64,000 nucleotides of DNA from Gynuella sunshinyii YC6258 (GCF_000940805.1 NZ_CP007142.1:408593-472592), one strand, 5' to 3'; numbered from the stretch's first letter, positions 1,985-58,609 are shown. Translations and numbers: made by a program. Notes: generated from the letters alone by a model not told the origin.

Positions 1985-2060
1985 AACTAAAGCATGCCCG
2001 CAAAAATACTGGATCTGCGTGACCACCTTACGAGCCTCGGGTCTACTTTGACCAGAATGC
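1985..2060 (-). pseudogene. Degraded remnant of the 3' end of a LysR-family gene (ca. 75% nucleotide identity to 7664-7740)
   Basis: The sequence ctaaag..gcaaaaatactggatctgcgtgaccaccttacg at ~1985-2040 matches ctaaagtttgctggcaaaatattgaatctgcgtgaccactttacg at ~7664-7710. The minus-frame translation ...EARKVVTQIQYF matches the LysR C-terminus REARKVVTQIQYFASKL. Confidence 0.55.
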
Positions 2061-2106
2061 GATGGGCAGTGCAGTTGCCTCCAGTTATCGATTTGGCTGA
2101 GTTTAT

Positions 2107-5076: not shown

Positions 5077-5512
5077 ACATTTGTGATACCTGACCTTTAT
5101 TACAGTTTCGAATCTTGATGCAGAAAAAGGGAAACAAAAGCACCTCCAACTCTGAAGGTTCATAAACCATAAAACAGCATAGAGTCAGGAACACTCCCGC
5201 CATGATTTTTCGAGCGGAAAAATCGGAATCAGTTGGGTTGGTAATAAAGGTCAGATTGACTGTTCCTTGGTAAGAATATTGTCATTGTTACCATATTTCA
5301 GCCTTCAAAGGCACCGCAGTATATGGAGATGCTTGATTATTCAAATAAATGGAAAGTTATGCCGGAAACGGGAGCATTCTACGCTCTATTGACTATACGG
5401 CGACAAAACAGGCAAAGGCCATGATCGTTTTTTCGAGATGGTTTTTCTGATTAAAGCTCATTTCGCGTGCAGTTTCATGGAACCATAAATAACGGACGTT
5501 GGAAGAAAGCAC

Positions 5513-7633
5513 ATGAATTTCAATAACCACAAATACTTACAAACAATATTTTGCTGTGCTCTATTGGCGGCATGCAACTCAGAAAGCGATTCAGGCAAAA
5601 CCAATACTGCCGCTGCACACAGCAGCCAGGGCCCTGAAATTCAACTGACCGGCATTGAAAATATACAACTGCTGGCCGGTAGCGATTTCGTTGATCCCGG
5701 CGCCGTTGCAGAAGATGCTGAGGATGGTGATCTGACATCCAGTATTTCTGTTGATTCGAATCTTGATGTTTCCACCACAGGCAAATACGGTATTACCTAT
5801 ACAGTCGTCGATTCTGATGGTCACGAAGCAACTGTCACACGCACCATTATTGTGGCTGCAGAGTTTGACGATAACTATCATGTCAGCTGGGAAAGCAACT
5901 TTAGCCTCCCCAAACAGGATGCAGACGGCTGGTCAATCTTAATACCCTCATCCAACTCGCGACTGATCTATATTTCAACCACGAGCGGTGACGACAATAC
6001 TGCGAAGGTTTACACGCCCAAGGATAGTGTAATCGGCGGAGACTATCGTAATCCTGCCGGTACGGTTTTAGCGTATAAGACAATGGAAGCCGCTTTCGAA
6101 CAATTAAGAGCCGGAAAACCAGACTACCTGCTGTTTAAGCGCGGAGACACCTTTACTAAAACCCCCGGCTTCGATCTTGCACTTAAAGCCGGTCGTTCAG
6201 CCTCCGAACGACAGGTTCTCACCAGTTATGGACCAGCCACAGAGAGACCTGTGATCGATACCGGTACTGGTTGGGGATTAAACTTCAACAATGCTCCCTA
6301 TTCAGCTGCCGTTGGATTATATGTTGTGGCCAGTGGACGTAACCCGGACCAGGACGGTGATGGCAAGGAGGACCGTGACTTTGACTGGAATTCCATAGGT
6401 CAGGCACTGGGTTTTCGTGGTTTGGATATCGTCGGCCACATACTGATCGAAGATTGCTGGTTCGACTGGTATTCAAGCAACTATTTCCAGTCAACCGATG
6501 ATAACTCCGAGGTGATAGACATTATTTTCAGACGGAACCTGGTGACCAACAATTATGCCGCGGTATCCGGTCAGAACACGCAAGGTATGTACTCCGATAA
6601 TGTTTCATCGTTAATTGAAGAAAACATTTTCGACCACAATGGCTGGTATAAACAGGGTACCGGTAGCGATGACAAAGAAGGTCAGGCTACTTACTACAAC
6701 CACAACATTTATTTTGTAGAACCCAGGAACACGATTGTCAGGAACAATCTGTTTTTGCGTTCATCCAGTATTGGTACCAAGTTCACCTCCAACACAACAT
6801 CCGGGGACAATCAGATCAAAGCCTGGAACCTGTTGGTTGATAACAATCTTTATCTTGAAGGCGAAGTTGGTATTGGTCTGAGCGGTAACAAAGATCAGAA
6901 CAACGGACCAAGATTTCAGCAAATCTACGTAACCAATAATGTGCTGATGAATATAGGCCGAACTCAGCCGTCTAAACGGGATCTTGGCTGGGGGATGGAT
7001 CTGGCTGACTGGAAAGGCGGGCTGGTCAACGGCAACATCTTTGCACACTGGGGACAATACAACGCTCAAAACAATAACAACTATGCCATGTATATAACTG
7101 GCGAGATGTCCAATACAGAGATCAGCAACAACATTATCTATGATATCTACAGCAATCAGGTTCTGGTCAACTTCACCGGATATGACGAAATCGTATCATT
7201 TGATTTTCACCACAATGAAATCCAGGGAAAGGATGCGAACGTTCAGCGACCTGGCCGCCTGTTGCAATATTCTGTTAACAAAGGCACTGGTAATCTGGCT
7301 AATAACTACTACTACTCAGAAGTAGAGCAGGATCACTGGTTTTCCGGGCAAGGTTCTGCTTATTTGACTCTGGATCAGTATCGCAGTTACTCCGGTGACA
7401 CGACATCCATGCCTCAGTCTCGCTCTTATGATGAGCCGGAGCGTTCTATTTCAAGTTATTTGTCCTCTCTCGGGTACGCCTCAGGGTTAAATGTAGATAC
7501 GGAAATGGCAGCGTTAATCGAGTTGTTACTGGCACAACAAAAAGGTAACTGGGACACCAACATAAGTGCTACAGCAATCAACAATTATATTCGCGAAGGA
7601 TTCTGCCTCGAGGGTAACTTCAGCTGCCGCTGA
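5513..7633 (+). CDS. Lipoprotein, paralog C, with the same architecture as paralog B. It is more divergent, roughly 45-50% identical.
   Basis: Lipobox LLAACNS. Ig-like domain motif PGAVAEDAEDGDLT. Conserved EDCWFDWYS and FDHNGWYKQGTGS motifs, and a C-terminal KGNWD...AINNY region shared by all three paralogs. Confidence 0.8.
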   Translation: MNFNNHKYLQTIFCCALLAACNSESDSGKTNTAAAHSSQGPEIQLTGIENIQLLAGSDFVDPGAVAEDAEDGDLTSSISVDSNLDVSTTGKYGITYTVVDSDGHEATVTRTIIVAAEFDDNYHVSWESNFSLPKQDADGWSILIPSSNSRLIYISTTSGDDNTAKVYTPKDSVIGGDYRNPAGTVLAYKTMEAAFEQLRAGKPDYLLFKRGDTFTKTPGFDLALKAGRSASERQVLTSYGPATERPVIDTGTGWGLNFNNAPYSAAVGLYVVASGRNPDQDGDGKEDRDFDWNSIGQALGFRGLDIVGHILIEDCWFDWYSSNYFQSTDDNSEVIDIIFRRNLVTNNYAAVSGQNTQGMYSDNVSSLIEENIFDHNGWYKQGTGSDDKEGQATYYNHNIYFVEPRNTIVRNNLFLRSSSIGTKFTSNTTSGDNQIKAWNLLVDNNLYLEGEVGIGLSGNKDQNNGPRFQQIYVTNNVLMNIGRTQPSKRDLGWGMDLADWKGGLVNGNIFAHWGQYNAQNNNNYAMYITGEMSNTEISNNIIYDIYSNQVLVNFTGYDEIVSFDFHHNEIQGKDANVQRPGRLLQYSVNKGTGNLANNYYYSEVEQDHWFSGQGSAYLTLDQYRSYSGDTTSMPQSRSYDEPERSISSYLSSLGYASGLNVDTEMAALIELLLAQQKGNWDTNISATAINNYIREGFCLEGNFSCR

Positions 7634-7659: not shown

Positions 7660-8523
7660 CTAAAGTTTGCTGGCAAAATATTGAATCTGCGTGACCACTT
7701 TACGCGCTTCACGTTGATTGAATGTCGATTTGCGACACACCAGAAAACTCGGCCGGTACAGCTGTTCAGGATCCGGCATCAGCGCAAAAGACATGGCATT
7801 CAATGCCTTGGCCACCCCCAGGGGGACCAGGGCGTGGCCAAACCCGGATATCGCCAGCTGTGCCGCCGCAAAAGAAGACTCCACCTGCATCGACTGATGC
7901 AGGTTAAATTCTGCCAACAGAGGTTTTAACCATTCCCAGGTGTTGGATTTGCGCTCAATGCCAATTATATCGATGGTTTTACCTGTCTCCCTTTCCTGCT
8001 TCAATAGCGCAAGATCTTTGCTTCTGGCCACGATGACCATTGGCTCCATATTGAGCAATTCCACCACCAGGCCGGGGGTTTGCGGGAGCTTGCCGGCACA
8101 AATGCCCAGTTGGTAATGACCGGACTGAATCTTGTCGATCACGGTTGGTGTCCGGTGTGCGTGAATATCAAACATCAGACCCTCTACCTGTTCACTGACA
8201 TTTTTCAGCAGATTCCCACCCCAGGAAGATAATATGGCTTCGGAAACACCGATGCTCAAGCGCTGTTGTGAGGTTTGACTTTGTTGCTGGATGATTAGAT
8301 TCAAGTCCGCCACCAGCGGACTGACTTTATTGATGAAGGCCGTTCCCTGCTCGGTAAAAACCGCCTTTCGCCCCTGCTTGGTAATCAGCTGTACGTCCAG
8401 TTGTTGCTCCAGCAATGCAATTCGCTTACTGATGGCCGACTGGCTGATTCGCAGTGCCAGTGCCGCAGCACTCATAGTCTGATGTTTGTCCAAGGCAATC
8501 AATGCTTCAATATTGGCCAACAC
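7660..8523 (-). CDS. LysR-family transcriptional regulator
   Basis: N-terminal HTH (TMSAAALALRISQSAISKRIALLEQQL) followed by a LysR substrate-binding domain. Divergent from the TauE/SafE gene. Confidence 0.85.
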   Translation of the reverse strand: MLANIEALIALDKHQTMSAAALALRISQSAISKRIALLEQQLDVQLITKQGRKAVFTEQGTAFINKVSPLVADLNLIIQQQSQTSQQRLSIGVSEAILSSWGGNLLKNVSEQVEGLMFDIHAHRTPTVIDKIQSGHYQLGICAGKLPQTPGLVVELLNMEPMVIVARSKDLALLKQERETGKTIDIIGIERKSNTWEWLKPLLAEFNLHQSMQVESSFAAAQLAISGFGHALVPLGVAKALNAMSFALMPDPEQLYRPSFLVCRKSTFNQREARKVVTQIQYFASKL

Positions 8524-9393: not shown

Positions 9394-11220
9394 TCAGAAC
9401 TCGATCTCCTGAAGCTGATCCGGTTGTATAGCGGTGACTTTGAGCTGCTTTTGGCGGGCTTTCTGTAACTCAAACTCCAGAGTCTTGACCGACGAAACAA
9501 ACTGCCAGTCAGCCACAACCTCATCATGACTGATGCTCAACAGCAACCAGCCACGATCACCGGTATTCATGTATTGAAGATCTTCCACCAGGGAGACGAT
9601 ACCAGCCTCCGTGGCGGCATAGTCGCTCGCATCAATATTCAAATACACTTCCAATCCCGGTGACGACACCGATGCGGTTGCCAGTTCCACCCCAACCACC
9701 TCGCCATTGGCGTTAGTCAGACGACTGGCCCAGGCATTATGAGTGTCTCCAGCCAGACTGATCAGTTTGACATTCAGCGTTTGGGCAATCGCCAGCAACC
9801 GCTCACGCTCAGCACCATAACCATCCCAGGCATCGAGGTTATACGGGAGACTGGGTGCCTGTAGTAACGCCATCACCTGATCTGTCAGGCGTGACTGGTT
9901 GGCTTGCACATAGGCGATTTGCTCAGCGGTCAAGGACGGATCTGAAACCGCCAGACGTTGAGCCAGAACTGCCAGTTGTGCCAATTCCGCATACTCAGAG
10001 ATCGTCATAGCCTGCGTCACGATAGCATACGGCAGATACATGCGGCCCATCAGAATCTGTTGACCCAGAATCTGCCAGGTACATTTGGACGCAGACATGG
10101 CATTTTGTAACCAGTCCAGCTGAGTGCTGCCCAACAACTGCCGCTCTTCATTGTTAATCGCGGCAGACAACGCAGTGGTATTGATGCCCTGGGTGGCGGG
10201 ATCGTAAAAACTCGTCAGATCCAGCTGCTGATCCCTGGCTTCATGGCGCGTATCCAGCATTAACAGATTGACCAGATCGCCCCAGACAAACTGACGGTAA
10301 ATACTGGTGGGCTCCATCAGGGAATCACTGTCGGCATTGACCGGTCGAATCGGCAACCATTCAAAATAGGCTTTAAAGGCAGCCGCTCTGCGATCCATAT
10401 AATCGCCTTGTTCAATGCTGTGGTTTTCGGCTCCGGCTTTCCAGGAGTCATTGGCAACTTCGTGGTCATCCCAGACCAGGATAAACGGGGTTTTGGCATG
10501 TGCCTGCTGTAAGTCGGTATCCGTCCGATATTGAGCGTAACGGGTACGATAATCCTCAAGACTGACCAGATCACCAGCCGGTTGGGGAACACGCCCCATT
10601 GCTTCGGCATCGTCAGTGGCATAACCATCCGCACCATATTCGTAAATATAGTCACCCAGATGCAGCACCAGATCCAGATCTTCGATCTGCGCCACAGACT
10701 GATAGACATGAAAGTAACCGGCCGGGTAGTTTGAACAGGATAACACCGCCATTTTCAGCTGACTGGCAGAACCTGAAGGCAGCGTGCGGGTGTGCCCCTG
10801 GGTAGAGTCATGGTTGGCAGTCCGGAACTGATAACGATAACGGGTATCAGCAGACAGGCCCCGGATATCCACTTTGACGGTAAAATCGTTCTCCAGCTTC
10901 GCCTCACCACGCCCCTGTGCAATGACCTGGGCGGTGTCGGCTTCCGCATACACTTGCCACTCAACCACAACGGCTGTTGTTGCGGGATTTTCGGGCGTCA
11001 CGCGGGTCCACAGAATCACGCTGTCACTGAGCGGATCCCCGGAGGCAACTCCATGCTCAAATGTTCCACGTCCCAGTGCTTCAGAGGGGGTTGCTGGAGC
11101 GCTGTCATCGTCATCATCCTGCGGGGCACAACCAACAAACGCATAAGTGACATAAATACTGCCAGCCGCGTGGGCACTGAGCTGTAAAAAACGACGTCGC
11201 GAAATAATAGGCATATCCAT
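9394..11220 (-). CDS. phoD: PhoD-family alkaline phosphatase/phosphodiesterase, exported via Tat
   Basis: Twin-arginine signal SRRRFLQLSAHAAG. PhoD-like metallophosphatase motifs are present (VLSCSNY, HLGDYIYEYG, VWDDHEVAND). Confidence 0.85.
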   Translation of the reverse strand: MDMPIISRRRFLQLSAHAAGSIYVTYAFVGCAPQDDDDDSAPATPSEALGRGTFEHGVASGDPLSDSVILWTRVTPENPATTAVVVEWQVYAEADTAQVIAQGRGEAKLENDFTVKVDIRGLSADTRYRYQFRTANHDSTQGHTRTLPSGSASQLKMAVLSCSNYPAGYFHVYQSVAQIEDLDLVLHLGDYIYEYGADGYATDDAEAMGRVPQPAGDLVSLEDYRTRYAQYRTDTDLQQAHAKTPFILVWDDHEVANDSWKAGAENHSIEQGDYMDRRAAAFKAYFEWLPIRPVNADSDSLMEPTSIYRQFVWGDLVNLLMLDTRHEARDQQLDLTSFYDPATQGINTTALSAAINNEERQLLGSTQLDWLQNAMSASKCTWQILGQQILMGRMYLPYAIVTQAMTISEYAELAQLAVLAQRLAVSDPSLTAEQIAYVQANQSRLTDQVMALLQAPSLPYNLDAWDGYGAERERLLAIAQTLNVKLISLAGDTHNAWASRLTNANGEVVGVELATASVSSPGLEVYLNIDASDYAATEAGIVSLVEDLQYMNTGDRGWLLLSISHDEVVADWQFVSSVKTLEFELQKARQKQLKVTAIQPDQLQEIEF

Positions 11221-47719: not shown

Positions 47720-50209
47720 ATGAATTCAAAAACCCTAAAAGCCATTCTTGCGGCCGGATTTTTGCTTGCCGCAAATGGCATGACAGCAACCACCGCATAT
47801 GCAGCTTCTGACATGACTGATACCTCAGAAAAACAGACTCTTTCCAACGCAGACAGTCCAACCGGTATCTGGCAATGCCCGGATTCCGGTTTGTACTTCT
47901 GTGACGATTTCGCCACCGGCAGCACCAATAACTGGAACCTGCTGCCGCAGACCGAAAACAGCATGATACCCGATGGCAGTTTTGACCTCGTTAATGATGC
48001 AGACAACTATGTCCTGCGCTATACCGCCGATAAATCCGGTGGCGTTATTGCGCTGGTTAAACCATCAGCTTTATCCATGCTGACAACGGCAGACTATTAC
48101 GTTGAGGCGAAAATCAGACCGCGTTACAACTCGACAGCTGCCAACAAGCAACTTTATTTGCTTGGTCGCTATCAGGACGGTAACAACTGGTATGCCGGAG
48201 CGATGAACATTCAAAATTCCGTCGGCAGCACCCAGGTGGAAATTGCCAAAATGGTCAACGGCGAACTGACGCGTATGCAGCGAGTCAAAACACCGATTGA
48301 ACAGGGTGCAAAAGATGCCCTGGACGGACAATGGTACTACCTGCGTCTGGTACTGAAAGGTGACACCCTGACGGTTTATCTCGATGGCGATCAGATTGCC
48401 TCCACTACCGACACGAGTTTCACAGATACCGGCATCATCGGTCTCTGGACATCCAATAAATCATTCGAAATCGATGATGTCCGAGTCGGTAATGCCGACG
48501 ACCTTCCTGCATCTATCGTGTTGTCTCCCAGAGATACGGAATACAGCGCTGAAGTTGGAGATACGCCCAAGGTCGTTGAAGTCAGTACCCGTACAGAGAC
48601 CGGAGAAAATGATACCTTTACCGTCACCTCAAGCGATTCGAATGTGATTGCCATCAGCACGGCAGGTAATCAGGTTACCCTGACACCCGTGGGATCAGGC
48701 ACCGCCACGGTCACATTTATCAGCGGCTCAAATCTGGTTCGAAAAATCAGCGCCACCATTGCACCACAATTTGAAATGCCAACCGCAGTCTATAATTTCT
48801 GCAATGAACTCACACCCGCCTCAGGCGAATTCAATACCTATGAAGATACCCAGCTCAAAATCAGATTTGATTCTGAGGTAACACTGGGAGAGGGATCCAT
48901 TCGCATTTTCAGAACCAGCGATGATGTCATGGTGGACAAAATCAGTCTGATCAATGAATCAGACAACATAGGCTACAACCCGGTACGTACCATTAAAACC
49001 AATCAGGTCAGAATCGATGGCAACATTGTCCGTATCACCCCACACGCCAATACTCTGGAGCACGGTGTCAACTACTATATCGCCATAGCTAAAGAAGCAT
49101 TCACCGGTGCAACATTGGCAGGACAAGTATTTGAGGGCATTGGAAAAAACAGTGGCTGGACCTTTACCACCAGAATCAACGGACCAGATACCAACAAGAC
49201 CACGCTGGTGGTTAACGATAATGGTCATCATGCTGACTTCCGGTCAGTACAAGGCGCACTCAACTTTATCATGCAGAACGTGGCAGCAGATACACCTGCT
49301 ACGGTGTATATCAAAAATGGCATATATGAAGAACCGCTGTACCTTTACGGCAAAAATAACATTACCTTGAAAGGTGAAAACCGGCGTAGAACCATCATTC
49401 GTTACACCATCAATGAGAGCATGAACTCGGGTACCGCAGGACGACCATTATTCCTGATAGAACAGGCAGATATGGTCAGACTGGACAACCTGACACTGAA
49501 AAACACCACACTGATCGGGGAAGGGCACCAGGCTGAAACGCTATTCTTTAACAGCCCGGACGGTCGACTGATTGCCACCAACGCAGACTTTTTCAGCGAA
49601 CAGGACACTCTGAACCTTAAGGGCTGGACCTGGTTCTATAACACATTGGTTGCCGGAAATGTTGATTTTATCTGGGGCTACAGCAAAGTCTCCTTGTTCG
49701 AAAACAGCGAAATCCGCACGTTGGGAGATTCACGGGGTAATGGCAGCGGCGGATACGTCCTTCAGGCCCGGGTGGAAAATGAAACCGACAAAGGCTTTGT
49801 CTTCCTCAACTCAAAAATCACTCGCGGTAACGGTCCGAACGGCGACCCGGTCCTGGACAATACTACCTACCTGGCCCGAAGCGGCGGTTGCAGTGGCTGT
49901 TACGACAATATCGTGTTCGTCAATACTTACATGGACGCCCATATCAAACCCGTCGGCTGGCTAAACGATCCATTACCCACACCACAAATAGCCAATGAAA
50001 ATGCGGGTTGGCGGGAATACAACACAATGGATCTTAACGGCCAGGAACAAGACCTTTCAGAAAGACTCGAAACCTTATCTTACGAAATGAACGAAGAGGA
50101 AGTTCTGAATGGCTACAGCACGAGAGAACAGATATTTTCCGCCTATAACAACGGCGAAGGATGGGAGCCAATGAAAGACATATACAATCATTGGCCGAGG
50201 TTTAAATAA
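47720..50209 (+). CDS. Secreted multidomain carbohydrate esterase family 8 (pectin methylesterase-like) protein with N-terminal lectin/Ig-like (Big_2) domains
   Basis: Signal peptide MNSKTLKAILAAGFLLAANGMTATTAYA. Big_2-like segment. C-terminal CE8 motifs FFSEQDTL and GNVDFIWG. Confidence 0.7.
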   Translation: MNSKTLKAILAAGFLLAANGMTATTAYAASDMTDTSEKQTLSNADSPTGIWQCPDSGLYFCDDFATGSTNNWNLLPQTENSMIPDGSFDLVNDADNYVLRYTADKSGGVIALVKPSALSMLTTADYYVEAKIRPRYNSTAANKQLYLLGRYQDGNNWYAGAMNIQNSVGSTQVEIAKMVNGELTRMQRVKTPIEQGAKDALDGQWYYLRLVLKGDTLTVYLDGDQIASTTDTSFTDTGIIGLWTSNKSFEIDDVRVGNADDLPASIVLSPRDTEYSAEVGDTPKVVEVSTRTETGENDTFTVTSSDSNVIAISTAGNQVTLTPVGSGTATVTFISGSNLVRKISATIAPQFEMPTAVYNFCNELTPASGEFNTYEDTQLKIRFDSEVTLGEGSIRIFRTSDDVMVDKISLINESDNIGYNPVRTIKTNQVRIDGNIVRITPHANTLEHGVNYYIAIAKEAFTGATLAGQVFEGIGKNSGWTFTTRINGPDTNKTTLVVNDNGHHADFRSVQGALNFIMQNVAADTPATVYIKNGIYEEPLYLYGKNNITLKGENRRRTIIRYTINESMNSGTAGRPLFLIEQADMVRLDNLTLKNTTLIGEGHQAETLFFNSPDGRLIATNADFFSEQDTLNLKGWTWFYNTLVAGNVDFIWGYSKVSLFENSEIRTLGDSRGNGSGGYVLQARVENETDKGFVFLNSKITRGNGPNGDPVLDNTTYLARSGGCSGCYDNIVFVNTYMDAHIKPVGWLNDPLPTPQIANENAGWREYNTMDLNGQEQDLSERLETLSYEMNEEEVLNGYSTREQIFSAYNNGEGWEPMKDIYNHWPRFK

Positions 50210-50318
50210 ATAGATTAAGGGATTAAGCGTGTTTGATGCAGGGATGCATCGCTTTGAAGCATTCAATAGTATGACAGTCCGAAGGCGTCATATATGTCCT
50301 TTTTATATCTCCCTCTGG

Positions 50319-50651
50319 TTAGAAATTCAAAAACTTTAATGCAGCCAAAGCGATACAAATCACTATCGATGCAGCACTTAATCTATTCAGTATATTTAGA
50401 CTTTTTGCAATAGACTTCACTTTTTCATCTTCAAACTTTAAATAAGGCTTTACATTGAAGTATCTAATACGATTAAGGTGTAACCTAAAGGCATTATCAT
50501 CATACAGTCCAAATTCTATCAATTGGCTATCATCCAGCTTTTCAATAGCCAAAAAGAACTCGCGTTGCAATGAGTTATATTTATTGACAAGAAAAATCGA
50601 TATTACTAAAAACATTAAGAAAAATATGCTTATCATACCTATCACCGTCAA
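50319..50651 (-). CDS. Small membrane protein (two TM helices) in the AT-rich island
   Basis: 110-aa ORF with low-GC codon usage. Confidence 0.4.
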   Translation of the reverse strand: MTVIGMISIFFLMFLVISIFLVNKYNSLQREFFLAIEKLDDSQLIEFGLYDDNAFRLHLNRIRYFNVKPYLKFEDEKVKSIAKSLNILNRLSAASIVICIALAALKFLNF

Positions 50652-50654
50652 AAC

Positions 50655-51110
50655 TTCTGATCAAAGCCAACCGCAAGCATAGTCCCACTGCTACCAAATA
50701 CTAATCCAACACCGCCTTTGAAATTCGCGCCGCCAGAGCCAAGAGTACCACTAACTTTTGTACCAAAGATTCCTCTAGCAGGAGCGGTCCACGAAAATTT
50801 ATCGGTAATGTTTAGATCTGACGGACCTCTCTCTCCGATTGGAAAGTTATAATCAACTGTTAACGATAAGCTGCGCCTTTGATTAACCCCGATCCAGCAA
50901 AGAACTTTGCATCACCAGCCCCATTAATAGAAAAATCAACCCTATAACCAGCATTGTTTTTTCTAAGAGCTAAGGAGCCTGTAAAGGAATAACGATCGAG
51001 CTCGTCAAGAGAATCTACAAACCTAAATAGATCCTCTCTCACGCCTCCATCTAGCATTCGATTCCAGAAAAAGCCTGCAAATGAGTCTTCAGATACCTGA
51101 GGCAAACTAG
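50655..51110 (-). pseudogene. Disrupted outer-membrane beta-barrel (OmpA/OmpW-like porin family) gene, frameshifted
   Basis: Two frames give ...FAGSGLIKGAAYR and ...GTLGSGGANFKGGVGLVFGSSGTMLAVGFDQKF*, which is Gly-rich with a C-terminal Phe typical of OMPs. No intact start or signal peptide. Confidence 0.5.
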
Positions 51111-51141
51111 GCCAGCTCCACCTGCTCTTTTGTACATTAAA

Positions 51142-51195
51142 GATTCAAGTTTACGGGTGTATTTTTTATTTTCATTCTTTTTATTTTCAAATTTA
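51142..51195. repeat. Island repeat copy 1 (degenerate): GATTCAAGTTTACGGGTGTATTTTTTATTTTCATTCTTTTTATTTTC
   Basis: One of five copies of the GAATTCAAGTTTATGGATGTCCTTTTTAT... family. Confidence 0.6.
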
Positions 51196-51312
51196 TGAAT
51201 TCAAATAATGGGTGCCCTTTTTATTTCTTATAGCACAAGATTGGCCAAGTTATTTACAGAGATATGGGTTCTAACCGTTGGTAATGGTTTAAGATCTCCT
51301 TAAGTAGCCACA

Positions 51313-51360
51313 ATTCAAGTTTTTGGGTGTTATTTTTGTTTTCCATTCTCATCACCCAAA
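51313..51360. repeat. Island repeat copy 2 (degenerate)
   Basis: AATTCAAGTTTTTGGGTGTTATTTTTGTTTTCCATTCTC. Confidence 0.55.
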
Positions 51361-51484
51361 GATATCCACGACTTGCATCTTTTTATAGCTGCTAACAGGG
51401 TAGCTATCCAATATGAACTTCTCTAAATCATTCGACAGTCTCTGAAAATATGGTGTAGCACTTGTGCTGGTACCATCATGGATT

Positions 51485-51510
51485 AACAAGTTTATGGATG
51501 TCCTATTTAT
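51485..51510. repeat. Island repeat copy 3 (core only), 11 nt beyond the 3' end of lipoprotein gene 51521..51928
   Basis: AACAAGTTTATGGATGTCCTATTTAT. Confidence 0.6.
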
Positions 51511-51520
51511 TCACCAATCC

Positions 51521-51928
51521 CTATTCCTTAACAAAACATAAATGTAACTCTGTTTGAAAACAAAGATGTATATTTGGCTCCTTGTTCTTTGACGTTTTTA
51601 CGGCCAAAGTAAACCAATCACCACGAGAGCTTGATATGCCTTTCATAGCCCTAAACTTAAAATTGTAAAAAACAACATCAATTTCAATCACAGAGTCAGA
51701 TGGCGTTTCAACAAACTTCCAAGCGCCTTTTTCTTCTTTAACTTCATTTTCTTCTCGAAATTTGTGTATATATGTACCATCGGCATTTATTTCCAACTTG
51801 TCGGTATCATCCGCGTAATGGGCCAAATAGCTACCATACAATTCTTCAGCATTAAAATACTCTCGTTTAGATCCACATCCTGTGCAAATGGCCATGATCA
51901 AAACAAAAAGGGAAAGGTGAAATTTCAT
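51521..51928 (-). CDS. Lipoprotein (candidate immunity-type protein)
   Basis: Lipobox MKFHLSLFVLIMAICTGCGS. 135 aa. Abuts the upstream 225-aa ORF with no gap. Confidence 0.55.
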   Translation of the reverse strand: MKFHLSLFVLIMAICTGCGSKREYFNAEELYGSYLAHYADDTDKLEINADGTYIHKFREENEVKEEKGAWKFVETPSDSVIEIDVVFYNFKFRAMKGISSSRGDWFTLAVKTSKNKEPNIHLCFQTELHLCFVKE

Positions 51929-52606
51929 TTAATACTGCTCAGTTATAAAATAAGTTTGCGATACTGTTGACATTGGCGACATAGTGTAACCAGTTCTATC
52001 ATACGAAATTTCACCAAATATTCTTCCGGTTAGCGAAGATAAGCTGGTGTTATTGTCTAGCGCATACATTAACGTGCGATTTGGCCCTCCAACAATATCC
52101 GTTACCGTGAAGCTCCCGACATATGCCCCCGTAGGGCTTTGCCAAGCGATTTTGAATCCTTCGGCAATTGATATCGTCTTCCCAAAGTTGGTTGCATGAA
52201 TTCCACTCCAGTCATTAGATGCAGATAACTGCGAGCCATATGTTTTGAAAAATAAGTCTCTGACGCGTTGAAACTCCGGGGTTAAGCTTAGATTGTGAGA
52301 TTGAATAGAGTCTGGACCAAACACCAGTTCGGAAGGACCAACTCCGAGAAAAAATCCCGCGACAATCATTCCAGCGGTCGCGACTTCACCAACTTGATCT
52401 CCAATCCCAAAGCTCTTTTGTGCATTATCCACCACCACTACGATAGTCCCCTGTTCTGCCAACTCTTCCTGAGCACGTATATACATATATCCATTGGGCA
52501 CCACACTGGTAGTTCCATAAGGCGAATAGTACTGATTTTGCACTCCCAGCGCTGCATCGGCGCACTGGATGTCATTTTTATCTTTTTTTATTTTCTTTTG
52601 AAACAA
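51929..52606 (-). CDS. Hypothetical 225-aa protein without a signal peptide (candidate effector/toxin-like partner of the downstream lipoprotein)
   Basis: Clean ORF with low-GC usage and no recognisable domain. Confidence 0.4.
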   Translation of the reverse strand: MFQKKIKKDKNDIQCADAALGVQNQYYSPYGTTSVVPNGYMYIRAQEELAEQGTIVVVVDNAQKSFGIGDQVGEVATAGMIVAGFFLGVGPSELVFGPDSIQSHNLSLTPEFQRVRDLFFKTYGSQLSASNDWSGIHATNFGKTISIAEGFKIAWQSPTGAYVGSFTVTDIVGGPNRTLMYALDNNTSLSSLTGRIFGEISYDRTGYTMSPMSTVSQTYFITEQY

Positions 52607-52625
52607 GTATCCAACTACTAAATCT

Positions 52626-52874
52626 CTATAGGCATTCTTTTTGTTTTTTTAATTTTGAATATACAATACTAAATATTACGCTTTCGAACACAACATATAC
52701 ACAAGCTATAGCGGATCCTCCCCTTAAATCAGCACCTCCCACCAAACCAAGACAGAAAACCTGAAGAAGAAAAATAACCGACTCTTTTTTCACATCACCC
52801 AATGAAAATATCTTAATAAACCGAAAGCATGTACCGCCAAAAACTATTACTACCACAATTATTGTTTCCGTCAT
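52626..52874 (-). CDS. Small membrane protein (82 aa)
   Basis: Two TM helices. Overlaps the upstream small ORF by 4 nt. Confidence 0.35.
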   Translation of the reverse strand: MTETIIVVVIVFGGTCFRFIKIFSLGDVKKESVIFLLQVFCLGLVGGADLRGGSAIACVYVVFESVIFSIVYSKLKKQKECL

Positions 52875-53051
52875 AACCCTACACCCAGCATCGCGTTAGT
52901 TACAATAGTATTTGCAGACGCACCTAGTTGAAATAGGTCATATCCAACTATAATATTACCCTGAGTTAATATTGAGATTTTTGTAACCTCAGACCCTAAA
53001 GTCAGAGGTTTTTTTACTAGCGATATTAATTGCACCAGATATCTTTTCTGG

Positions 53052-53108
53052 GAATTCAAGTTTATGGATGTCCTTTTTATTTTTCTATTCTCTCTTTTTA
53101 TTCTTCTC
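53052..53108. repeat. Island repeat copy 4 (full length), 14 nt beyond the 3' end of lipoprotein gene 53122..53547
   Basis: GAATTCAAGTTTATGGATGTCCTTTTTATTTTTCTATTCTCTCTTTTTATTCTTC. Confidence 0.65.
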
Positions 53109-53121
53109 TATTTCGAATCGC

Positions 53122-53547
53122 CTAGCTTTCTATCTTATATTTCTTATGTAACTGAGAGATATTCCGTGGATCGATTTCGATAAGGACATCTTTAGTATCA
53201 AACCAAAGACTTAGGTATCTATCTTTAGATTGATTAAAATTTAATGGATTATTTTGCTGATATATATACAACAATCTTCTTCCCACGACGCTATTGTCTT
53301 CTTTTCTCGTCATAATAGTGTCATATGATGGTTCACCCAACATAGCTATAACAACAGCATATGAATCACCTATTTCTAATTTTTGGATTTTTTCGATATC
53401 TAACGGTAAGTTCTGTCTTTCTTCAATATTCAAATCACTATGCTTGGTATCATTACCATCTTTATTACATGCAGTAAAACCAAATAAGGTTATTGATATT
53501 GCTATACAAGTATTAATTACAATATTTAAACGCATATTCCTTAACAT
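53122..53547 (-). CDS. Lipoprotein (candidate immunity-type protein)
   Basis: Lipobox ISITLFGFTACNKDG. 141 aa. Confidence 0.55.
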   Translation of the reverse strand: MLRNMRLNIVINTCIAISITLFGFTACNKDGNDTKHSDLNIEERQNLPLDIEKIQKLEIGDSYAVVIAMLGEPSYDTIMTRKEDNSVVGRRLLYIYQQNNPLNFNQSKDRYLSLWFDTKDVLIEIDPRNISQLHKKYKIES

Positions 53548-53579
53548 CTTGTGGGCTCCAGATAAAATGATATTTTGAG

Positions 53580-53917
53580 GGCTTTCCTCCTACATGAAGA
53601 GCACCATACGCAGTAGTTGAACAATTAGAGTCGATAGTGGACCAGTTTTTATCTTATTTCCATTTATCCCACCACGATTTTATTTTTTCAGTATCTGGGT
53701 TAGTGACCAATATTTCATGATCAGGTATTTTTTGCCCTTCCAATCTTACGTCATCCTCAAAACTTTGATTGGCCATTTCTTCTGCTTCAAAGACTTGGCC
53801 TCCATAAGATCCGAATACTTTATATTTTTCTATAGGCCTTTGCTCAGGGCCAGGGCAGAAACTAATATGAGTTCCATTATTGTTTCCCTTGAGATTTTTG
53901 CTATTTTAATTTACTAA
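53580..53917 (-). pseudogene. Start-less C-terminal ORF fragment (...GTHISFCPGPEQRPIEKYKVFGSYGGQVFEAEEMANQSFEDDVRLEGQKIPDHEILVTNPDTEKIKSWWDKWK*) immediately upstream of the lipoprotein gene
   Basis: Open frame of about 100 codons with no plausible start other than an internal Met. Resembles an orphan C-terminal module. Confidence 0.35.
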
Positions 53918-54307
53918 GTTTCGGCTAAATACCAGCAATAGTGCAGAGAGCAGACAAACCAGACAGGATAACTTAAAAAGCAGCCCATACCGCGTATAAT
54001 TATTACACAGCGCATCTAACGTCGCATCACTAAGAGACTTATAAGATTTTTTCTTTAGAAAGTCGGAAAAAGCTTTTTGCCTACTTAGCTCGTAAACTTC
54101 AAATTTGAGAGAGACACCTAAATTTTTGCTAATATCAGGGTATGATTCAAGAAGTCTTTTTTTATATCTATTTTGAACACCATAGTCCCGACTAGAGAGA
54201 TAACTACGACTGCTACGGATAAGACGAATATTCACTCTACCAGCATATCTACTCTCCAGAATTGAATAATTGATAGCTGAATCCAACCGACCTTGCAACT
54301 GAACCAC
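53906..54307 (-). CDS. Hypothetical 133-aa protein with a C-terminal TM helix. Possibly the frameshifted continuation of the upstream Gly-rich fragment at 54310-54470.
   Basis: The same DNA upstream reads ...GLAGFKAAGSIGLNGLSDQVGIGVVKGG in another frame. Confidence 0.3.
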   Translation of the reverse strand: MVQLQGRLDSAINYSILESRYAGRVNIRLIRSSRSYLSSRDYGVQNRYKKRLLESYPDISKNLGVSLKFEVYELSRQKAFSDFLKKKSYKSLSDATLDALCNNYTRYGLLFKLSCLVCLLSALLLVFSRNLVN

Positions 54308-54561
54308 CTTTTACCACTCCGATACCGACTTGGTCACTTAAGCCGTTTAAACCGATGGACCCCGCTGCTTTGAATCCTGCCAACCCATACACTTGCGATG
54401 TAATTGATGTTTTACCCAAGAAATCGAGACCTCCAATTATTTCCAGCGAATGGCTGCGCTTGCAAGTTTAAATCCGCCGTTAGTGAAAAGCTTCTACCTG
54501 TCACGTAACCTGTTTCTTCGGCTCCAGGAATTTCAATTCATATATTTTCCTGGACAGCCAG

Positions 54562-54590
54562 GAATTCAAGTTTATGGATGTCCTTTTTAT
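54562..54590. repeat. Island repeat copy 5 (core)
   Basis: GAATTCAAGTTTATGGATGTCCTTTTTAT. Confidence 0.65.
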
Positions 54591-54750
54591 ATTTTTTATA
54601 CTTCCGCGAATGCGCGGGATAATTATTAATATTAAAATTTTTTATGCCCTTCTCAAAGGATCTTTTTTATTCTGGTAATAGACTTATTCAATATGGTAGA
54701 AAATGAAATATACTACGATTGGTTTTCAGTCAACGAGAAAAGGATAAGTT

Positions 54751-55077
54751 ATGAAGAGGGTTTTACTTTTATTGATATCAATCTTGTCGGTTAATACTTT
54801 GGCATATACGGAATGTAGCCGTTCTCCAAACAAAGTCTGGCTAAACCTTACGGGTAATTCAGTCTGGATTTGCTTCGATACAGGAAATTGTGTCTATAAA
54901 ACAGTTTCTGGTAACTTTACTGAAGCCCATCTGGACAGGATGTATGCAACTGGTATGGCAGCAATATCAGCGGGGAAAAATCTGATTATCAGATACCCAG
55001 AAGACAATGCAAACTGCAGTGACCTGACCAGCACTCCGAGCAGAGATGATATTCAAGGGTTGTGGTTCACCAAATAA
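54751..55077 (+). CDS. Small secreted cysteine-containing protein (108 aa)
   Basis: Sec signal MKRVLLLLISILSVNTLAYT; four Cys residues in the mature part. Confidence 0.45.
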   Translation: MKRVLLLLISILSVNTLAYTECSRSPNKVWLNLTGNSVWICFDTGNCVYKTVSGNFTEAHLDRMYATGMAAISAGKNLIIRYPEDNANCSDLTSTPSRDDIQGLWFTK

Positions 55078-55245
55078 AGGTTTGCAGAAACACACGCGAC
55101 AGATAGCCTTGTCGTTGGTAACAACAGTAGCTATAACAGTACCTAAAAATACAACTTACCTGTACGACGCGATGAAATAAATAGCCGATTATATAGCTAG
55201 AAGAATTCGTATCTCTTGTATAAGTGTCTCGGTCAGTCAATAGCA

Positions 55246-55929
55246 TCAGAGTGAAGAATGTGGTTTATCTGTTGTATCTTCACTCTGATGATGTCTCACA
55301 GGCACTTCCTCCCAACCGCTGATCATGGCTTTCATAAACTGTCCAACAGTTGCTCCAGTGGTTATCAAATACAGGTGGGCCACGAGAAAGGTCAGTATCA
55401 GAAATGCAGCAGCGGTATGAATCAAGGCAACGATTTCGAGGCTTAACCCGGCGTTGATCAGTTCGAATCTTGCCCATTCATTGTAAAACAGATAAAGCAG
55501 TCCGCTGATCCATATCGCTGGAATAATCAGTATTTTTAGCAGCAAATAGGCTAGTCGTTGCAGTGGGTTGTGTTTGGCCGCAGTACTGGGATGAAACGGA
55601 TGCGGTTCTCCGCTAAAAATGCCTCTGGAGTAGTACATCAGTTGCTCCCATAATCCTTTACGGGTAGGCAGGTAGTGTTTGTATTCTCCCGTGGTCAGAT
55701 GCCAGAAGATGGTGAACACCCACAGTACCACCAGAGACCAGGCCGACATTTCATGAAGTTGTGTCGCCCGGTCAAATCCGAACAGCGTGTAGTTACCATG
55801 AATTTCAAATCCCGTCAGCGCCATAAATATGATCAATACCGCCTGAGCCCAATGCCAGAATCGTTCATACGCTTTAAATAGCAGTATCCGTTCAGTTGTC
55901 TGGTTCATTCCGTTTTCTCCTCCAGGCAA
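55246..55929 (-). CDS. Membrane b-type cytochrome (Ni/Fe-hydrogenase/formate-dehydrogenase cytochrome b family, PF01292-like)
   Basis: RFWHWAQAVLIIFMALTGFEIH plus four TM helices carrying conserved His. Last gene of the cytochrome operon. Confidence 0.7.
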   Translation of the reverse strand: MPGGENGMNQTTERILLFKAYERFWHWAQAVLIIFMALTGFEIHGNYTLFGFDRATQLHEMSAWSLVVLWVFTIFWHLTTGEYKHYLPTRKGLWEQLMYYSRGIFSGEPHPFHPSTAAKHNPLQRLAYLLLKILIIPAIWISGLLYLFYNEWARFELINAGLSLEIVALIHTAAAFLILTFLVAHLYLITTGATVGQFMKAMISGWEEVPVRHHQSEDTTDKPHSSL

Positions 55930-57499
55930 ATATGATTCGCAAGGTTCCGTGTGTCAGCACGGCAACAATCGTGAGAATAACGAGCAGCCTTCCCAATTGA
56001 TCCAATAGCTGGGATTGGTTTTGTCCTGGAATATACAAACCAGCAACTCTACCCAAACGACCTTCTCCGGTATGACATTGCTGACAACTCAGAGCCTGTT
56101 CTTTGGGAGCCACGCCATGATTGAGTGGCCACAGCATAGTCGTCTCGACAAATCCGACTTCACCGGAAAATTTCAGTCCTGCAGCTTCAGCGCCTGCCTG
56201 CAGCGATTTTTCCCAGCTGTAACCATTCCAGTAGGCCTCACGTCCACGACCAGCAAGCTGCATGGGTATCAGCTTCTGTTCTTCGGAGTCGTAAGGCAGT
56301 ATTGAACGGAATACATGGAAGGGGAAGATCTTGCTGTTCGTTTGTTCAGCACCACCCCCTATGGTTGTCATCATTACTGCTGTAGCCGGGTCGACCGGGT
56401 TGCCGGGTTTTGCAAATGTTATCTGGCCATCAAACCAACGATATTCCGGGCGCAGTGTTTCCCCATATTGCATGGCGCCTTTTTGCGATGCGTAAATTAC
56501 TCTGCCAGCTTCGTCATATTCAATAATCGGTTTACGACGACGATCTTTTTCACCAGCTTTAGACCAGTCCCAGAAGGTTTTGGTAGCCACACCTCCACGG
56601 GCATATGCCGGAATATGGCATGTCTGACAGGCAACCCGATCTGTGTGATCGTTCAACCGCTCATCCTGCATCGGTCTGTCTCCATGACAGGAAACGCAGG
56701 TGGCTCTCGCACCATTTAACGCATCCACACCTTTATCATCAATCGGGCTGTTTGCCTGATAACGACTCCCATACATTTGATGATCATTTCCCTGGTGGCA
56801 ACTGCTACAGGTCAAACTCGCGCCATCCGCACTGAGATGTACATCCAATTCATGACTGGCATTCAATAGAGAGCTGTCCAGGTCGCCATGCTTGGCGCCA
56901 TCCGCGCCGCCATCATGAAAATGACACGCACCACAAGCACTACTGGTCGTCATGCCTACTTGTTGCGCCATGGTCGTCAAAGTAACGGTAAACCGAGATG
57001 GCTGGTTCTTTGTCTGCTCTTTTAAGGCTTCTGCGCCATCATCGTGACAATTCAGACACTTAGCCCCATCCTGATGAAATTTGCTGTAAAAATATTCACC
57101 TGTAGTGTCATGGCACATCATGCAATCGACCACGCCATCCGGGCGAATACCACTCAGCTCCTGTTCTTCCAGACCATAACCAATATGGCAGTTATCACAG
57201 GAGTCCATATTCGAGGCCACGGAAGGATGATAGCTGTTCATAACATTCAGCTTTCCCTGTAGATGACCACTCTTATCTTCAAACTGCCAACGCCAGTGGA
57301 TGGTATTGTGTAGCTGAGCAGGAGCCTCCGTATGACAGGACACACATGCGTCATTCAACTGTTGCAGAGTCTCAAAATCCTGTTGCAGAACTTCGAATTT
57401 ATGGTGATCTGCTGTTCCTCCAGCCATCAACAACGGACTTGCCAGCAACAAAAGCAGCCACCGCATCATCCATCGCAGTGGCTTATTCAATACAGGCAT
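55892..57499 (-). CDS. Periplasmic multiheme c-type cytochrome (about nine CxxCH motifs)
   Basis: Signal peptide, then CVSCH, CDNCH, CMMCH, CLNCH, CGACH, CSSCH, CVSCH, CQTCH and CQQCH motifs. A C-terminal hydrophobic segment is present. Confidence 0.8.
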   Translation of the reverse strand: MPVLNKPLRWMMRWLLLLLASPLLMAGGTADHHKFEVLQQDFETLQQLNDACVSCHTEAPAQLHNTIHWRWQFEDKSGHLQGKLNVMNSYHPSVASNMDSCDNCHIGYGLEEQELSGIRPDGVVDCMMCHDTTGEYFYSKFHQDGAKCLNCHDDGAEALKEQTKNQPSRFTVTLTTMAQQVGMTTSSACGACHFHDGGADGAKHGDLDSSLLNASHELDVHLSADGASLTCSSCHQGNDHQMYGSRYQANSPIDDKGVDALNGARATCVSCHGDRPMQDERLNDHTDRVACQTCHIPAYARGGVATKTFWDWSKAGEKDRRRKPIIEYDEAGRVIYASQKGAMQYGETLRPEYRWFDGQITFAKPGNPVDPATAVMMTTIGGGAEQTNSKIFPFHVFRSILPYDSEEQKLIPMQLAGRGREAYWNGYSWEKSLQAGAEAAGLKFSGEVGFVETTMLWPLNHGVAPKEQALSCQQCHTGEGRLGRVAGLYIPGQNQSQLLDQLGRLLVILTIVAVLTHGTLRIIFAWRRKRNEPDN

Positions 57500-57505
57500 A
57501 GTGAG

Positions 57506-58609
57506 TTAAGGCCGATCGAGTTTTGGAACTGTCACTTTCTGACCAAGATCCATCACGGAATCATGCATCAGTTGCAGCACGTATGATGCGTTGTGCATAT
57601 AAGCGCCGTGATCTTTAAGCGCAAACTGATAGTTATAAGCCGCTTTGGCCAGTCTTGGAGTCCAGTGGCTATATCCGTTCTTGCGGTTGGCCTCATCTTC
57701 ATCAACCTTGCCATTGGCATTCAGGTCATTGAAGAAATAAGGGTAGGTATGTTCGTCATAGGCAATTCCGCTGCCGACCACATCTGTCGAGTAACGTGTC
57801 ATAACAGTAAGCAGTAATTCTTCCAGCCCTTGCACTTCGTACTTGATGCCCTCTTCAGTATTACCATCACCGTCGAAATCACCTTTGAGATCACGAATGT
57901 TGGCAAAGTCATCTTTAGTGACTACCGATTCATGGCAATCCTGACAACCCCGGGGATCGATTTTCAGGGTATGACTGTTATGGCAATCGTTGCATTGAGT
58001 GGACACTTCGTCGTGAAAGTAGAAGCCAGCATACTTCTGGCCGGAATACTGATAGCCACCGTGAGCTTCAGCACCAAAACGAGTCGCGCCAGCGGCACTG
58101 TAATGGATATTCAGGAATTTCAACTTGTCGGAGGAGGCGTCATCGGCCACAGCCGCTTCCTGTACCATTTTATCAACGGCGATACCGGAAGACCGACCCT
58201 GATGGCAGTCCATACATCGGGCGTCTGGCTCAAAACGTTCCACCTCGATACCCGATGGAAACAGCACCGCTTCTTTATGCAGCGTAGCAGTATTGTGGCA
58301 AGCGACACAGGCAACACCTTCCTCTATCGGTGCATCTTTTTCAACCGATCCTGCGGCACTGCCATCCACTCCGAGGAAATCAAGATGTCCTGTGGTGGAA
58401 TGGCATCCGGCACAATCTTTGGAGACTTTACCTTCATCATTCCAATGAGCAAAAGGCTCTGCCTCAAAGTCGGCATGGGGGGAACTCTGCCAGTCTTCCA
58501 GGAAAGGAATCTGGGGCAGCTTATGCTCTGCAGTTCGGGCAAAAAAGGATACAGCAACCAGAACAGTGAATACGGCAGTCAGGCATAAGGAACGTTTAGT
58601 ATGCATCAT
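57506..58609 (-). CDS. Periplasmic multiheme c-type cytochrome (about five CxxCH motifs)
   Basis: Signal peptide, then CAGCH, CVACH, CMDCH, CNDCH and CQDCH motifs. Confidence 0.8.
   Translation of the reverse strand: MMHTKRSLCLTAVFTVLVAVSFFARTAEHKLPQIPFLEDWQSSPHADFEAEPFAHWNDEGKVSKDCAGCHSTTGHLDFLGVDGSAAGSVEKDAPIEEGVACVACHNTATLHKEAVLFPSGIEVERFEPDARCMDCHQGRSSGIAVDKMVQEAAVADDASSDKLKFLNIHYSAAGATRFGAEAHGGYQYSGQKYAGFYFHDEVSTQCNDCHNSHTLKIDPRGCQDCHESVVTKDDFANIRDLKGDFDGDGNTEEGIKYEVQGLEELLLTVMTRYSTDVVGSGIAYDEHTYPYFFNDLNANGKVDEDEANRKNGYSHWTPRLAKAAYNYQFALKDHGAYMHNASYVLQLMHDSVMDLGQKVTVPKLDRP

Follow-up and report, generated by a model that had tools for sequence, protein, structure and literature searches.

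What is a short repeat doing between the small genes of an AT-rich island in the chromosome of Gynuella sunshinyii YC6258? The stretch of DNA analysed here, called the window throughout, is 64,000 nucleotides long (NZ_CP007142.1:408593-472592); several of its proteins match entries with YC6258 accessions exactly. A preliminary description had picked out five copies of a 30–55 bp repeat with a T-rich tail in it, just 3′ of lipoprotein genes. The descriptive part of our answer has good support: the repeat marks the boundaries of cassettes in an array of orphan Rhs toxin/immunity modules, and the same motif stands upstream of a gene, tnpA, that resembles the REP-associated tyrosine transposases (RAYT; REP, repetitive extragenic palindromic). 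We give a probability of roughly 0.6 to the fuller reading, a strand-specific, non-coding cassette-boundary motif linked to this RAYT-related TnpA-Y1 gene, in which catalysis by the gene product is presumed. The parts of it that we count as established are how the array is built, that one cassette derives from Rhs, that the motif is common to array and tnpA, and that breakpoints fall at the motif's 3′ edge.

Alignment of all copies reduces the conserved unit to about 25 nt, WATAAAAAGGACATCCATAAACTTG on the gene (minus) strand, with unrelated sequence on both flanks. The greater length first proposed does not hold, and the supposed T-rich tail is, on the sense strand, a non-conserved purine-rich tract, in part reiterations of the motif's 5′ half, and these A-rich reiterations blur the 5′ side of the motif. 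All five copies listed before are real, since a repeat search recovered them (families D6 and D8, at 51142/51146, 51313/51316, 51485/51487, 53052/53057 and 54562/54567); an exact 29-mer, GAATTCAAGTTTATGGATGTCCTTTTTAT, occurs only at 53052 and 54562, with 0.00 expected in shuffles. A weight matrix trained solely on motif copies from other genomes, with the maxima of 10 shuffles (3 to 17) as background, gave six sites in the window, scoring 43.9, 43.1, 39.0, 25.7, 22.7 and 14.7, all on the minus strand and inside the island and well above every other site; the next one reached 10.2, a level also seen among the shuffle maxima. Of the six, the copy at 51202-51225 was absent from the earlier list. 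Two probable remnants, one degenerate (~52558-52582) and one truncated (50294-50308), score at chance level and were recognised only by comparison with L031, a contig of a close relative with 97–99.5% nucleotide identity to the window. The motif has the orientation of the genes in 6/6 clear copies of the window, 7/7 in L002 (a second Gynuella locus) and 3/3 in L031. No copy was found outside arrays in the other 59 kb of the window or in 33 kb of a sister Gynuella sp. genome (L026 and L027), that is, in about 92 kb from two Gynuella genomes. As the preliminary description had already stated, this is not a CRISPR array.

That description had also read the core as the peptide I-(K/N)-R-T-S-I-N-L, running in frame into a different short open reading frame (ORF) after each copy. 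No constant reading frame passes through the motif across the 16 array copies: the IKRTSINL frame stays open for at least 40 codons in 5/16, another frame does so in 3/16 and the third in 1/16, and what is open varies by copy between the IKRTSINL frame, the KKDIHKL frame and an arrangement with the motif upstream of an ATG. With unrelated flanks and no constant frame, the motif is therefore not a translated junction. Neither is it a structured element of an obvious kind. Alignment and folding revealed no inverted-repeat structure, no palindrome and no hairpin in the motif, folding energies of the copies being no better than those of shuffles unless non-conserved flanking stems are included, and no Rfam family matches it. 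These observations bear directly on the idea of intrinsic transcription terminators after each gene, which had been offered as an alternative and to which the T-rich tract following the core on the plus strand lends some appearance. The genes, however, are on the minus strand, where that tract is A-rich and lies upstream of the core; terminator-like consensus sites are absent from every copy and not enriched in the island; and the folding energies improve only with unrelated flanking hairpins. The terminator explanation retains next to no probability.

Scans of sequence collections gave few informative matches. Four were found in genomes: L002 was the lead to another array, and L001, L003 and L004 are single matches, probably due to chance. 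The one in L001 (6029-6058; Psychroflexus, Bacteroidota, genome bin) agrees with window 54565-54594 over 30 nt with one mismatch; it is a single copy in an 8-kb locus without tnpA, and the pattern scan itself probably selected it. Metagenomes gave 20 single-match loci, mostly of the form AAAGGACATCCATAAATG... and probably chance or ordinary start regions, and those that look relevant are L014 and L022, where tnpA adjoins the motif, and L007. The viral scan returned three chance matches, none with tnpA nearby.

Rhs origin of the cassettes and breakpoints at the motif

The island (50250..55291, minus strand), delimited by its composition profile and by the end of homology to the sister genome, measures about 5 kb and has about 35% GC against about 50% in its surroundings. 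It lies between a pectinesterase gene (47720-50209, plus strand) and a cytochrome b gene (55246-55929, minus strand), and nearly all of its ORFs are on the minus strand. Homology to the sister genome ends at 50249 on one side (L026, just past the pectinesterase gene) and at 55292 on the other (L027, where the cytochrome b gene ends). The intervening 5 kb are YC6258-specific and entirely non-homologous to what the sister genome holds at the same chromosomal site. There, an rhs gene of at least 1763 aa (SpvB, FG-GAP, RHS repeats) starts beside the cytochrome b gene, points into the island and runs off the contig L027, and the pectinesterase side carries insertion sequence (IS) fragments and, at the end of L026, the 3′ part of a tnpA-Y1 gene. 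In the 64-kb window itself, tblastn detected no remaining Rhs-core homology; no recombinase gene is present among the island ORFs, and ten of these compared with Pfam and NCBIfam gave no convincing family match.

The link of the array to Rhs proteins comes from a 225-aa ORF (51929..52606, minus strand). A word-based homology search matched it only to itself; a full HMMER search found 24 relatives, with residues ~64–225 aligning to the extreme C-termini of proteins of very different lengths, among them the Rhs-repeat proteins P0143, P0144, P0146 and P0150 and one DUF637/CdiA-like protein. Alignment of this sort is the signature of a polymorphic-toxin C-terminal domain, and the ORF may on these grounds be called a putative orphan toxin. 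The domain of about 150 aa (51929-52606 and P0135-P0157) is carried by Rhs, CdiA-like and short proteins, has no Pfam model and appears to be an undescribed polymorphic-toxin family, whose members share motifs such as G.GP...F and QF[VI]GS[FY].[VI]...N.TS..S. A 135-aa lipoprotein-like gene (51521..51928, minus strand) abuts the toxin stop, and the two are conserved as a pair in L031 and L032, which makes it the candidate cognate immunity gene and agrees with the immunity position foreseen for the lipoprotein-like genes. The copies do follow the stops of these genes, as first described: the stop at 51521 is followed by a motif from 51511, and that at 53122 by one from 53081, with an A-rich tract between.

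In L031 the same toxin (97% nucleotide identity) is still fused to the end of an Rhs core, ...NRYAYVLNNPLSYSDPSGY. The contig begins with that core end, ...VQSYNRYAYVLNNPLSYSDPSGY, and continues with a linker, the toxin, the same 135-aa lipoprotein-like gene and a perfect motif. In the window the core and the linker upstream of the toxin are gone, and a probable degenerate motif, M3 (..ATAAAAATGACATCCAGTG.., 52558..52582, minus strand), abuts the toxin sequence at the position of the loss; it is recognised from the L031 comparison and its score of 4.2 is at chance level, so its identification is tentative. Since the toxin is fused to the core in L031 and the core is replaced by the degenerate motif in the window, this cassette, at least, represents the C-terminus of a main rhs gene, displaced along with its immunity gene. 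The HMMER matches, the L031 fusion and the rhs gene of the sister genome together bear out the earlier proposal of orphan Rhs-type toxin C-terminus/immunity modules with the repeat at module junctions, and the interpretation of the island as such an array is well supported, with toxin and immunity functions predicted from position and homology. The anatomy recurs in L002, where seven motif copies, all co-oriented with the genes, lie within 8 kb around a DUF7668 gene and a small protein that joins an Rhs core to an HNH toxin, and the array ends in tnpA. One fragment of L002 was considered as half of an NlpC/P60 domain and dropped, as Pfam gave no confirmation.

The usual explanation for orphan toxin/immunity arrays is homologous recombination through core sequence that the modules have kept. 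The preliminary description had seen in the repeat a conserved, translated junction that serves as a recombination handle and that a full-length toxin gene would have, too, where its variable C-terminus begins. Orphan toxin/immunity modules with the repeat at their junctions, some copies of which run in frame into ORFs, are what such a handle would produce. However, the motif of L031 lies after the immunity gene and not at the junction between Rhs core and toxin C-terminus, the frames differ among copies, the window holds no Rhs-core remnant, and 25 nt is at the lower limit for RecA-dependent exchange. We regard the handle as largely refuted and very improbable.

Breakpoints argue for a different role of the motif. 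The window and L031 are collinear through the toxin, the lipoprotein-like gene and motif M4 (51487..51511, minus strand, score 39.0), and collinearity breaks at the 3′ edge of M4. Straight after the CTTG that ends the motif, L031 reads CTATGCCTGCGGTTGGC..., a sequence that in the window lies 800 bp further on. The CTTG is thereby joined to the last ~10 codons of the toxin fragment of cassette 7, which is longer in the window and precedes a 110-aa ORF; L031 skips window 51484-50683, so that its order is lipoprotein-like gene, motif and then the 110-aa cassette (99.5% identity). A coding sequence cannot grow from its last ten codons and, therefore, L031 is the derived state, the product of a deletion one end of which falls precisely on the 3′ edge of the motif (CTTG|). 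CTTG microhomology at the L031 junction was considered as well and rejected, none being present in the sequences read. In the window, cassette 7 consists of a toxin-like pseudogene (50651..51144, minus strand), in which three-frame translation shows two glycine-rich fragments of 94 and 87 aa separated by a frameshift, and of the 110-aa membrane-protein ORF in immunity position (50319..50651, minus strand), which shares 99.5% nucleotide identity with the corresponding ORFs of L031 and L032. Exact look-up gave no record for this ORF or for the G. sunshinyii tnpA locus. Ten nucleotides past the stop of the 110-aa ORF stands the truncated motif M8, ATATAAAAAGGACAT| (50294..50308, minus strand; score 6.3, at chance), cut after GGACAT at the distal end of the array, where L031 has a full motif at the equivalent position.

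The edge can also be followed over all array copies, by comparison with the sequence that natively follows the motif in front of tnpA. Ten of the 16 array copies leave this sequence right after CTTG and the other six within a few nucleotides more; four copies of the window keep 3–9 extra native bases (AAT, AATT, AATTCC and AATTCCCA). The 3′ edge is therefore sharp, although not absolutely fixed.

The tnpA gene that shares the motif

Perfect or near-perfect copies of the motif precede a gene of ~355 aa with an NHYH (HUH) motif in L002, L014 and L022, and a copy stands 35–60 nt upstream of the tnpA ATG in these loci and in L025, L028, L029, L030 and L033. The family is large, with more than 8000 members, and well conserved (60–65% identity across marine gammaproteobacterial genera), and its members are named RayT or IS200-like transposase in the sources; in the closer clade, ~60% or more identical, 7 of 8 loci have the motif over the −35 of the tnpA promoter. 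All 24 tested members match NCBIfam NF047646 (REP-associated tyrosine transposase); the lowest E-value is 1e-11, every match stays below the curated 80-bit cut-off, and the match to Pfam Y1_Tnp is weak. The NHYH, WE and YVDLNP motifs of the product, together with its length and taxonomy, match subclass 2.3 of TnpA-Y1, for which no flanking REP-like structure is known and whose interactions were left unidentified (Quentin et al. 2018, PMC6006769). A solved-structure profile search with the family gave no match, and the AlphaFold model of the G. sunshinyii protein is poor (pLDDT 54). YC6258 has five intact copies of tnpA, AJQ92202, AJQ94131, AJQ94195, AJQ95713 and AJQ96070, and two frame-shifted ones, 91–97% identical, and among Gynuella copies the shared homology spans only from ~35 nt upstream of the motif to the stop codon.

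The gene stands beside rhs in four settings, drawn from a small sample of loci with enough context. L028 carries on one strand an rhs gene (>4039 aa, Tox-REase-5), Imm52, six motif copies and tnpA; L025 has tnpA 1.8 kb upstream of a 2329-aa rhs gene; L002 runs from the RHS core through the HNH toxin and the seven motifs to tnpA; and in L026/L027, the sister version of the window locus, rhs and tnpA lie on opposite sides. In L029 the contig ends just upstream of tnpA. The association is thus frequent in the motif-carrying clade and not universal. A literature search on a link of RAYT or IS200 with Rhs, and on Gynuella rhs genes, found nothing relevant.

Some of these loci hold further pieces of the gene. 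L029 has a second, diverged (52% identity) partial tnpA-Y1 paralogue at 7728-8318, 6 kb from the first. In L022, an inverted and truncated tnpA 5′ end (3418-3439; motif, promoter and first codons) lies beside toxin-like fragments ending ...GGKFANGAQAAATAHLFNQ, and an IS66-family element (1024-3300) lies beside the same fragments; from this locus, arrays seem to be prone to IS insertion.

What follows the motif differs between tnpA and the arrays. Every tnpA-proximal copy has a TAnnnT-like hexamer exactly 17 nt after the motif end (CTTGACA or CTTGAAT, with TTGACA/TTGAAT as −35), and the ATG comes ~7 nt after the hexamer. From this spacing, the motif overlaps the −35 of a plausible tnpA promoter. 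The array copies have no −10 at the right spacing, as though the gene-proximal sequence had been cut off between −35 and −10, which is how we read them. The same facts bear on the possibility that the motif is a portable expression signal (part of a −35/UP element, an operator, or a Shine–Dalgarno sequence with a TTG start, AAAGGA-N11-TTG) that keeps orphan immunity genes expressed. The promoter-like context in front of tnpA would suit such a signal, as would the ORFs that start at the motif's TTG at M2, M4 and L002 4549, the overlap at M2 being suggestive of coupling. Against it stand the missing −10 of the array copies, a consensus promoter scan with no site at any copy (14 sites in the island versus 16.1 expected) and the frame of the TTG, open for at least 40 codons in only 5/16 copies. 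We consider a portable expression signal quite improbable.

Next to tnpA the motif can be reiterated. L025 has three copies upstream of the gene (9800-9970), preceded by GTAG (ACGTAGGACATCCACAAACTTG) and interspersed with shorter reiterations (10–11 nt; with their variable ends 10–12 nt), GACACGTAG(G/C)(A), spaced by about one helical turn in an iteron-like manner. In L028 (9735-10000), which has six copies upstream of tnpA, five tandem units of 20–24 nt (AAAAGGACATCCAATAAAAG...) are followed by a promoter and the first 26 tnpA codons, and then motif, promoter and the full gene come again; the joint of this partial duplication is at the 5′ side of a motif.

Reiteration beside tnpA, and of the motif or its 5′ half inside the arrays, is one of the features that recommend a generic selfish repeat, of the REP type or that of miniature inverted-repeat transposable elements (MITE), which a RAYT-like gene would mobilise and which would pile up in permissive AT-rich intergenic DNA with no cassette role. 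The associated gene is indeed RAYT-related and multi-copy in YC6258, and a solitary copy in L007 lies between convergent ordinary genes. On the other hand, the motif lacks a palindrome or hairpin, every array copy is co-oriented with the genes, and the ~92 kb of non-array DNA are free of copies; no presence/absence polymorphism of the motif alone is seen, the differences between the window and L031 being whole segments that end at the motif; and the sequence 3′ of the motifs is truncated coding DNA instead of intact intergenic DNA. This alternative, raised already in the preliminary description, comes nearer than expected through the tie to a RAYT-related gene, but the motif is not palindromic and, in the ~92 kb of non-array DNA sampled, not dispersed; overall we judge a selfish repeat unlikely.

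Proposed assembly of the array and comparison with known systems

In our reading the native order is rhs core, toxin C-terminus, immunity gene, motif or motifs, and tnpA, and each cassette is a 5′-truncated or orphaned toxin C-terminal region with its immunity gene, followed by the motif. New motif-ending modules would be laid down repeatedly and DNA 3′ of the motif deleted, so that a motif would be left in front of every older, truncated module; the window locus would later have lost both its rhs gene and its tnpA gene. The motif may be bound or nicked by a protein, most plausibly TnpA-Y1, and its 3′ edge would for this reason be a preferred joint for the addition and deletion of modules. We infer this mechanistic step from the association with tnpA, one ancestral/derived comparison and the sharp edge. 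The array would keep immunity genes useful.

It is tempting to go further and regard subclass 2.3 of TnpA-Y1 as domesticated HUH enzymes in charge of a cassette system that handles Rhs toxin/immunity modules much as an integron would. Having bound the GGACATCC box, the enzyme would nick the DNA ~11 nt further downstream, behind CTTG; at rhs loci, motif-ending modules could then be taken out, put in or piled up, and sequence 3′ of the motif could be deleted. We hold this extension to be doubtful, though not far-fetched. If true, bacteria would in this way hold a reserve of immunity genes along with spare toxin ends, and subclass 2.3 RAYT-like genes would gain their first cognate DNA site and first biological role.

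Several observations weigh against a boundary motif acted upon by TnpA-Y1. Y1 transposases normally recognise hairpins, and none is conserved in the motif. The joint varies by 0–9 nt after CTTG, which would also suit illegitimate joining, or slippage during replication, at a site bound by protein, and the motif-anchored deletion rests on a single direct comparison of ancestral and derived states (the window versus L031/L032). The 64-kb window contains no tnpA and no rhs gene and, therefore, any enzyme would act in trans or have acted in the past. No rhs gene lies within 10 kb in L033 (IS elements and toxin–antitoxin genes), L034 (Fic) or L030 (reprolysin-like), and two distant plasmid-borne family members, 41–45% identical, have neither motif nor rhs. 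The copy-free non-array DNA amounts to the ~92 kb sampled, less than the whole YC6258 genome. Finally, the near-perfect solitary copy of L007 (6564-6585), on a metagenome contig, is flanked by convergent genes that look ordinary, one of them thioesterase-like and the other an epimerase-like C-terminus; no other copy was seen away from toxins or tnpA.

How does this array relate to those already described? Classical orphan rhs-CT/immunity arrays of Enterobacteriaceae sit downstream of rhs genes and keep a piece of the rhs core as a homology handle. The Gynuella array resembles them in its co-oriented modules of displaced toxin C-terminus and immunity gene, in its place in an AT-rich variable region at an rhs locus, in a toxin domain shared with full-length Rhs proteins and in a module content that is fully different between close relatives. 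Unlike them, it has no core remnant, its main rhs gene is absent from the window locus, and a non-coding motif of 25 nt stands before each module, as it does before a Y1 transposase-like gene. E. coli Rhs elements are accompanied by H-rpt, ISAs1-type elements of the DDE type; there, too, a transposase-like gene recurs downstream at rhs loci, whereas the gene of Gynuella type is Y1 HUH and its short cognate motif is reiterated through the array.

With REP/REPIN–RAYT systems the array shares a short repeat that is tied to, and adjoins, a gene like the Y1 HUH transposases of the TnpA-Y1 superfamily, with a weak match to NF047646. It departs from them in that the motif is free of palindrome and hairpin, has a single direct orientation, and is clustered in toxin arrays with none dispersed in the sampled DNA; in addition, tnpA is multi-copy in Gynuella, and no REP-like structure is given for subclass 2.3 (PMC6006769). 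The gene is also unlike IS200/IS605 elements, as tnpA is not bracketed by ends with subterminal hairpins and the shared homology stops at the stop codon.

The closest concept is the rAID cluster (acquired defence against other bacteria, associated with a recombinase) in Bacteroidales, in which a tyrosine recombinase lies upstream of co-oriented, low-GC orphan immunity genes with conserved intergenic motifs (PMC12247911). The Gynuella array likewise has co-oriented, low-GC, short genes of immunity type, a conserved intergenic motif and, in relatives, a gene of recombinase or transposase type at one end. That gene, however, is of the Y1 HUH type and at the downstream end, with no tyrosine recombinase, and in contrast to rAID clusters, made of immunity genes only, toxin fragments are retained in the cassettes, there is a tie to rhs, and the host is a gammaproteobacterium. 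Integrons rely on the tyrosine recombinase IntI and on attC sites with R′′/L′′–L′/R′ inverted repeats. In both systems the cassettes all point the same way, mostly lack promoters and end in a repeated site, and strains differ by whole cassettes, but the Gynuella array has no IntI and its motif lacks attC-like inverted repeats.

The array is of the known Rhs-orphan kind without a core-derived handle, and its joints are marked instead by a short motif of a Y1 transposase-like family, which hints at a manner of array assembly so far undescribed. If the link is causal, a new class of enzyme would be added to the means by which toxin/immunity arsenals are assembled, and motif plus tnpA would serve as a sequence tag for finding arrays and new toxin domains in marine Gammaproteobacteria. 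If it is not, an Rhs orphan array has still been cleanly annotated, and with it a new toxin C-terminal domain and its lipoprotein partner.

Remaining parts of the array and its neighbourhood

The array begins upstream with motif M1, TATAAAAAGGACATCCATAAACTTG (54567..54591, minus strand, score 43.1). Cassette 1 follows as frame-shifted, glycine-rich coding remnants (53906..54541, minus strand), read by three-frame translation as fragments of 72 aa (54252-54467) and 134 aa (53909-54310) with no Pfam or NCBIfam match. In its immunity position is a 141-aa lipoprotein-like gene (53122..53547, minus strand), with a lipobox, FTAC, recognised by eye and a weak BamE-like match; a paralogue with 84% nucleotide identity is present in L031. 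Behind motif M2 (53057..53081, minus strand, score 43.9), cassette 2 (52626..53059, minus strand) is made of two ORFs, a 62-aa one with the TTG within M2 as its start codon and an 82-aa membrane-protein ORF (52626-52874), whose start the former overlaps (ATGA); neither has a family match. Between M4 and cassette 7 lie the diverged M5, AACAAAAATAACACCCAAAAACTTG (51316..51340, minus strand, score 22.7), M6, AATAAAAAGGGCACCCATTATTTG (51202..51225, minus strand, score 14.7), and M7, AATAAAAAATACACCCGTAAACTTG (51146..51170, minus strand, score 25.7).

Inside the island and opposite to the array, a 108-aa ORF with a signal-peptide-like N-terminus and no family match occupies 54751..55077 (plus strand). 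Between it and M1, a GC-rich hairpin, TTCCGCGAATGCGCGGGA (54602-54619), is the only good stem near any copy and lies outside the repeat. The island is bordered at 55246-58609 by genes for the cytochrome b, a cytochrome c of the octaheme tetrathionate-reductase family and a further multihaem cytochrome, conserved in the sister genome with 86% nucleotide identity. At the other end of the window, three paralogous genes, for 559, 726 and 706 aa, lie in tandem at 63-7633, and the first and second repeat with a period of 3.33 kb at 72–86% nucleotide identity; the two that were tested carry a Bact_surface_Ig-like domain.

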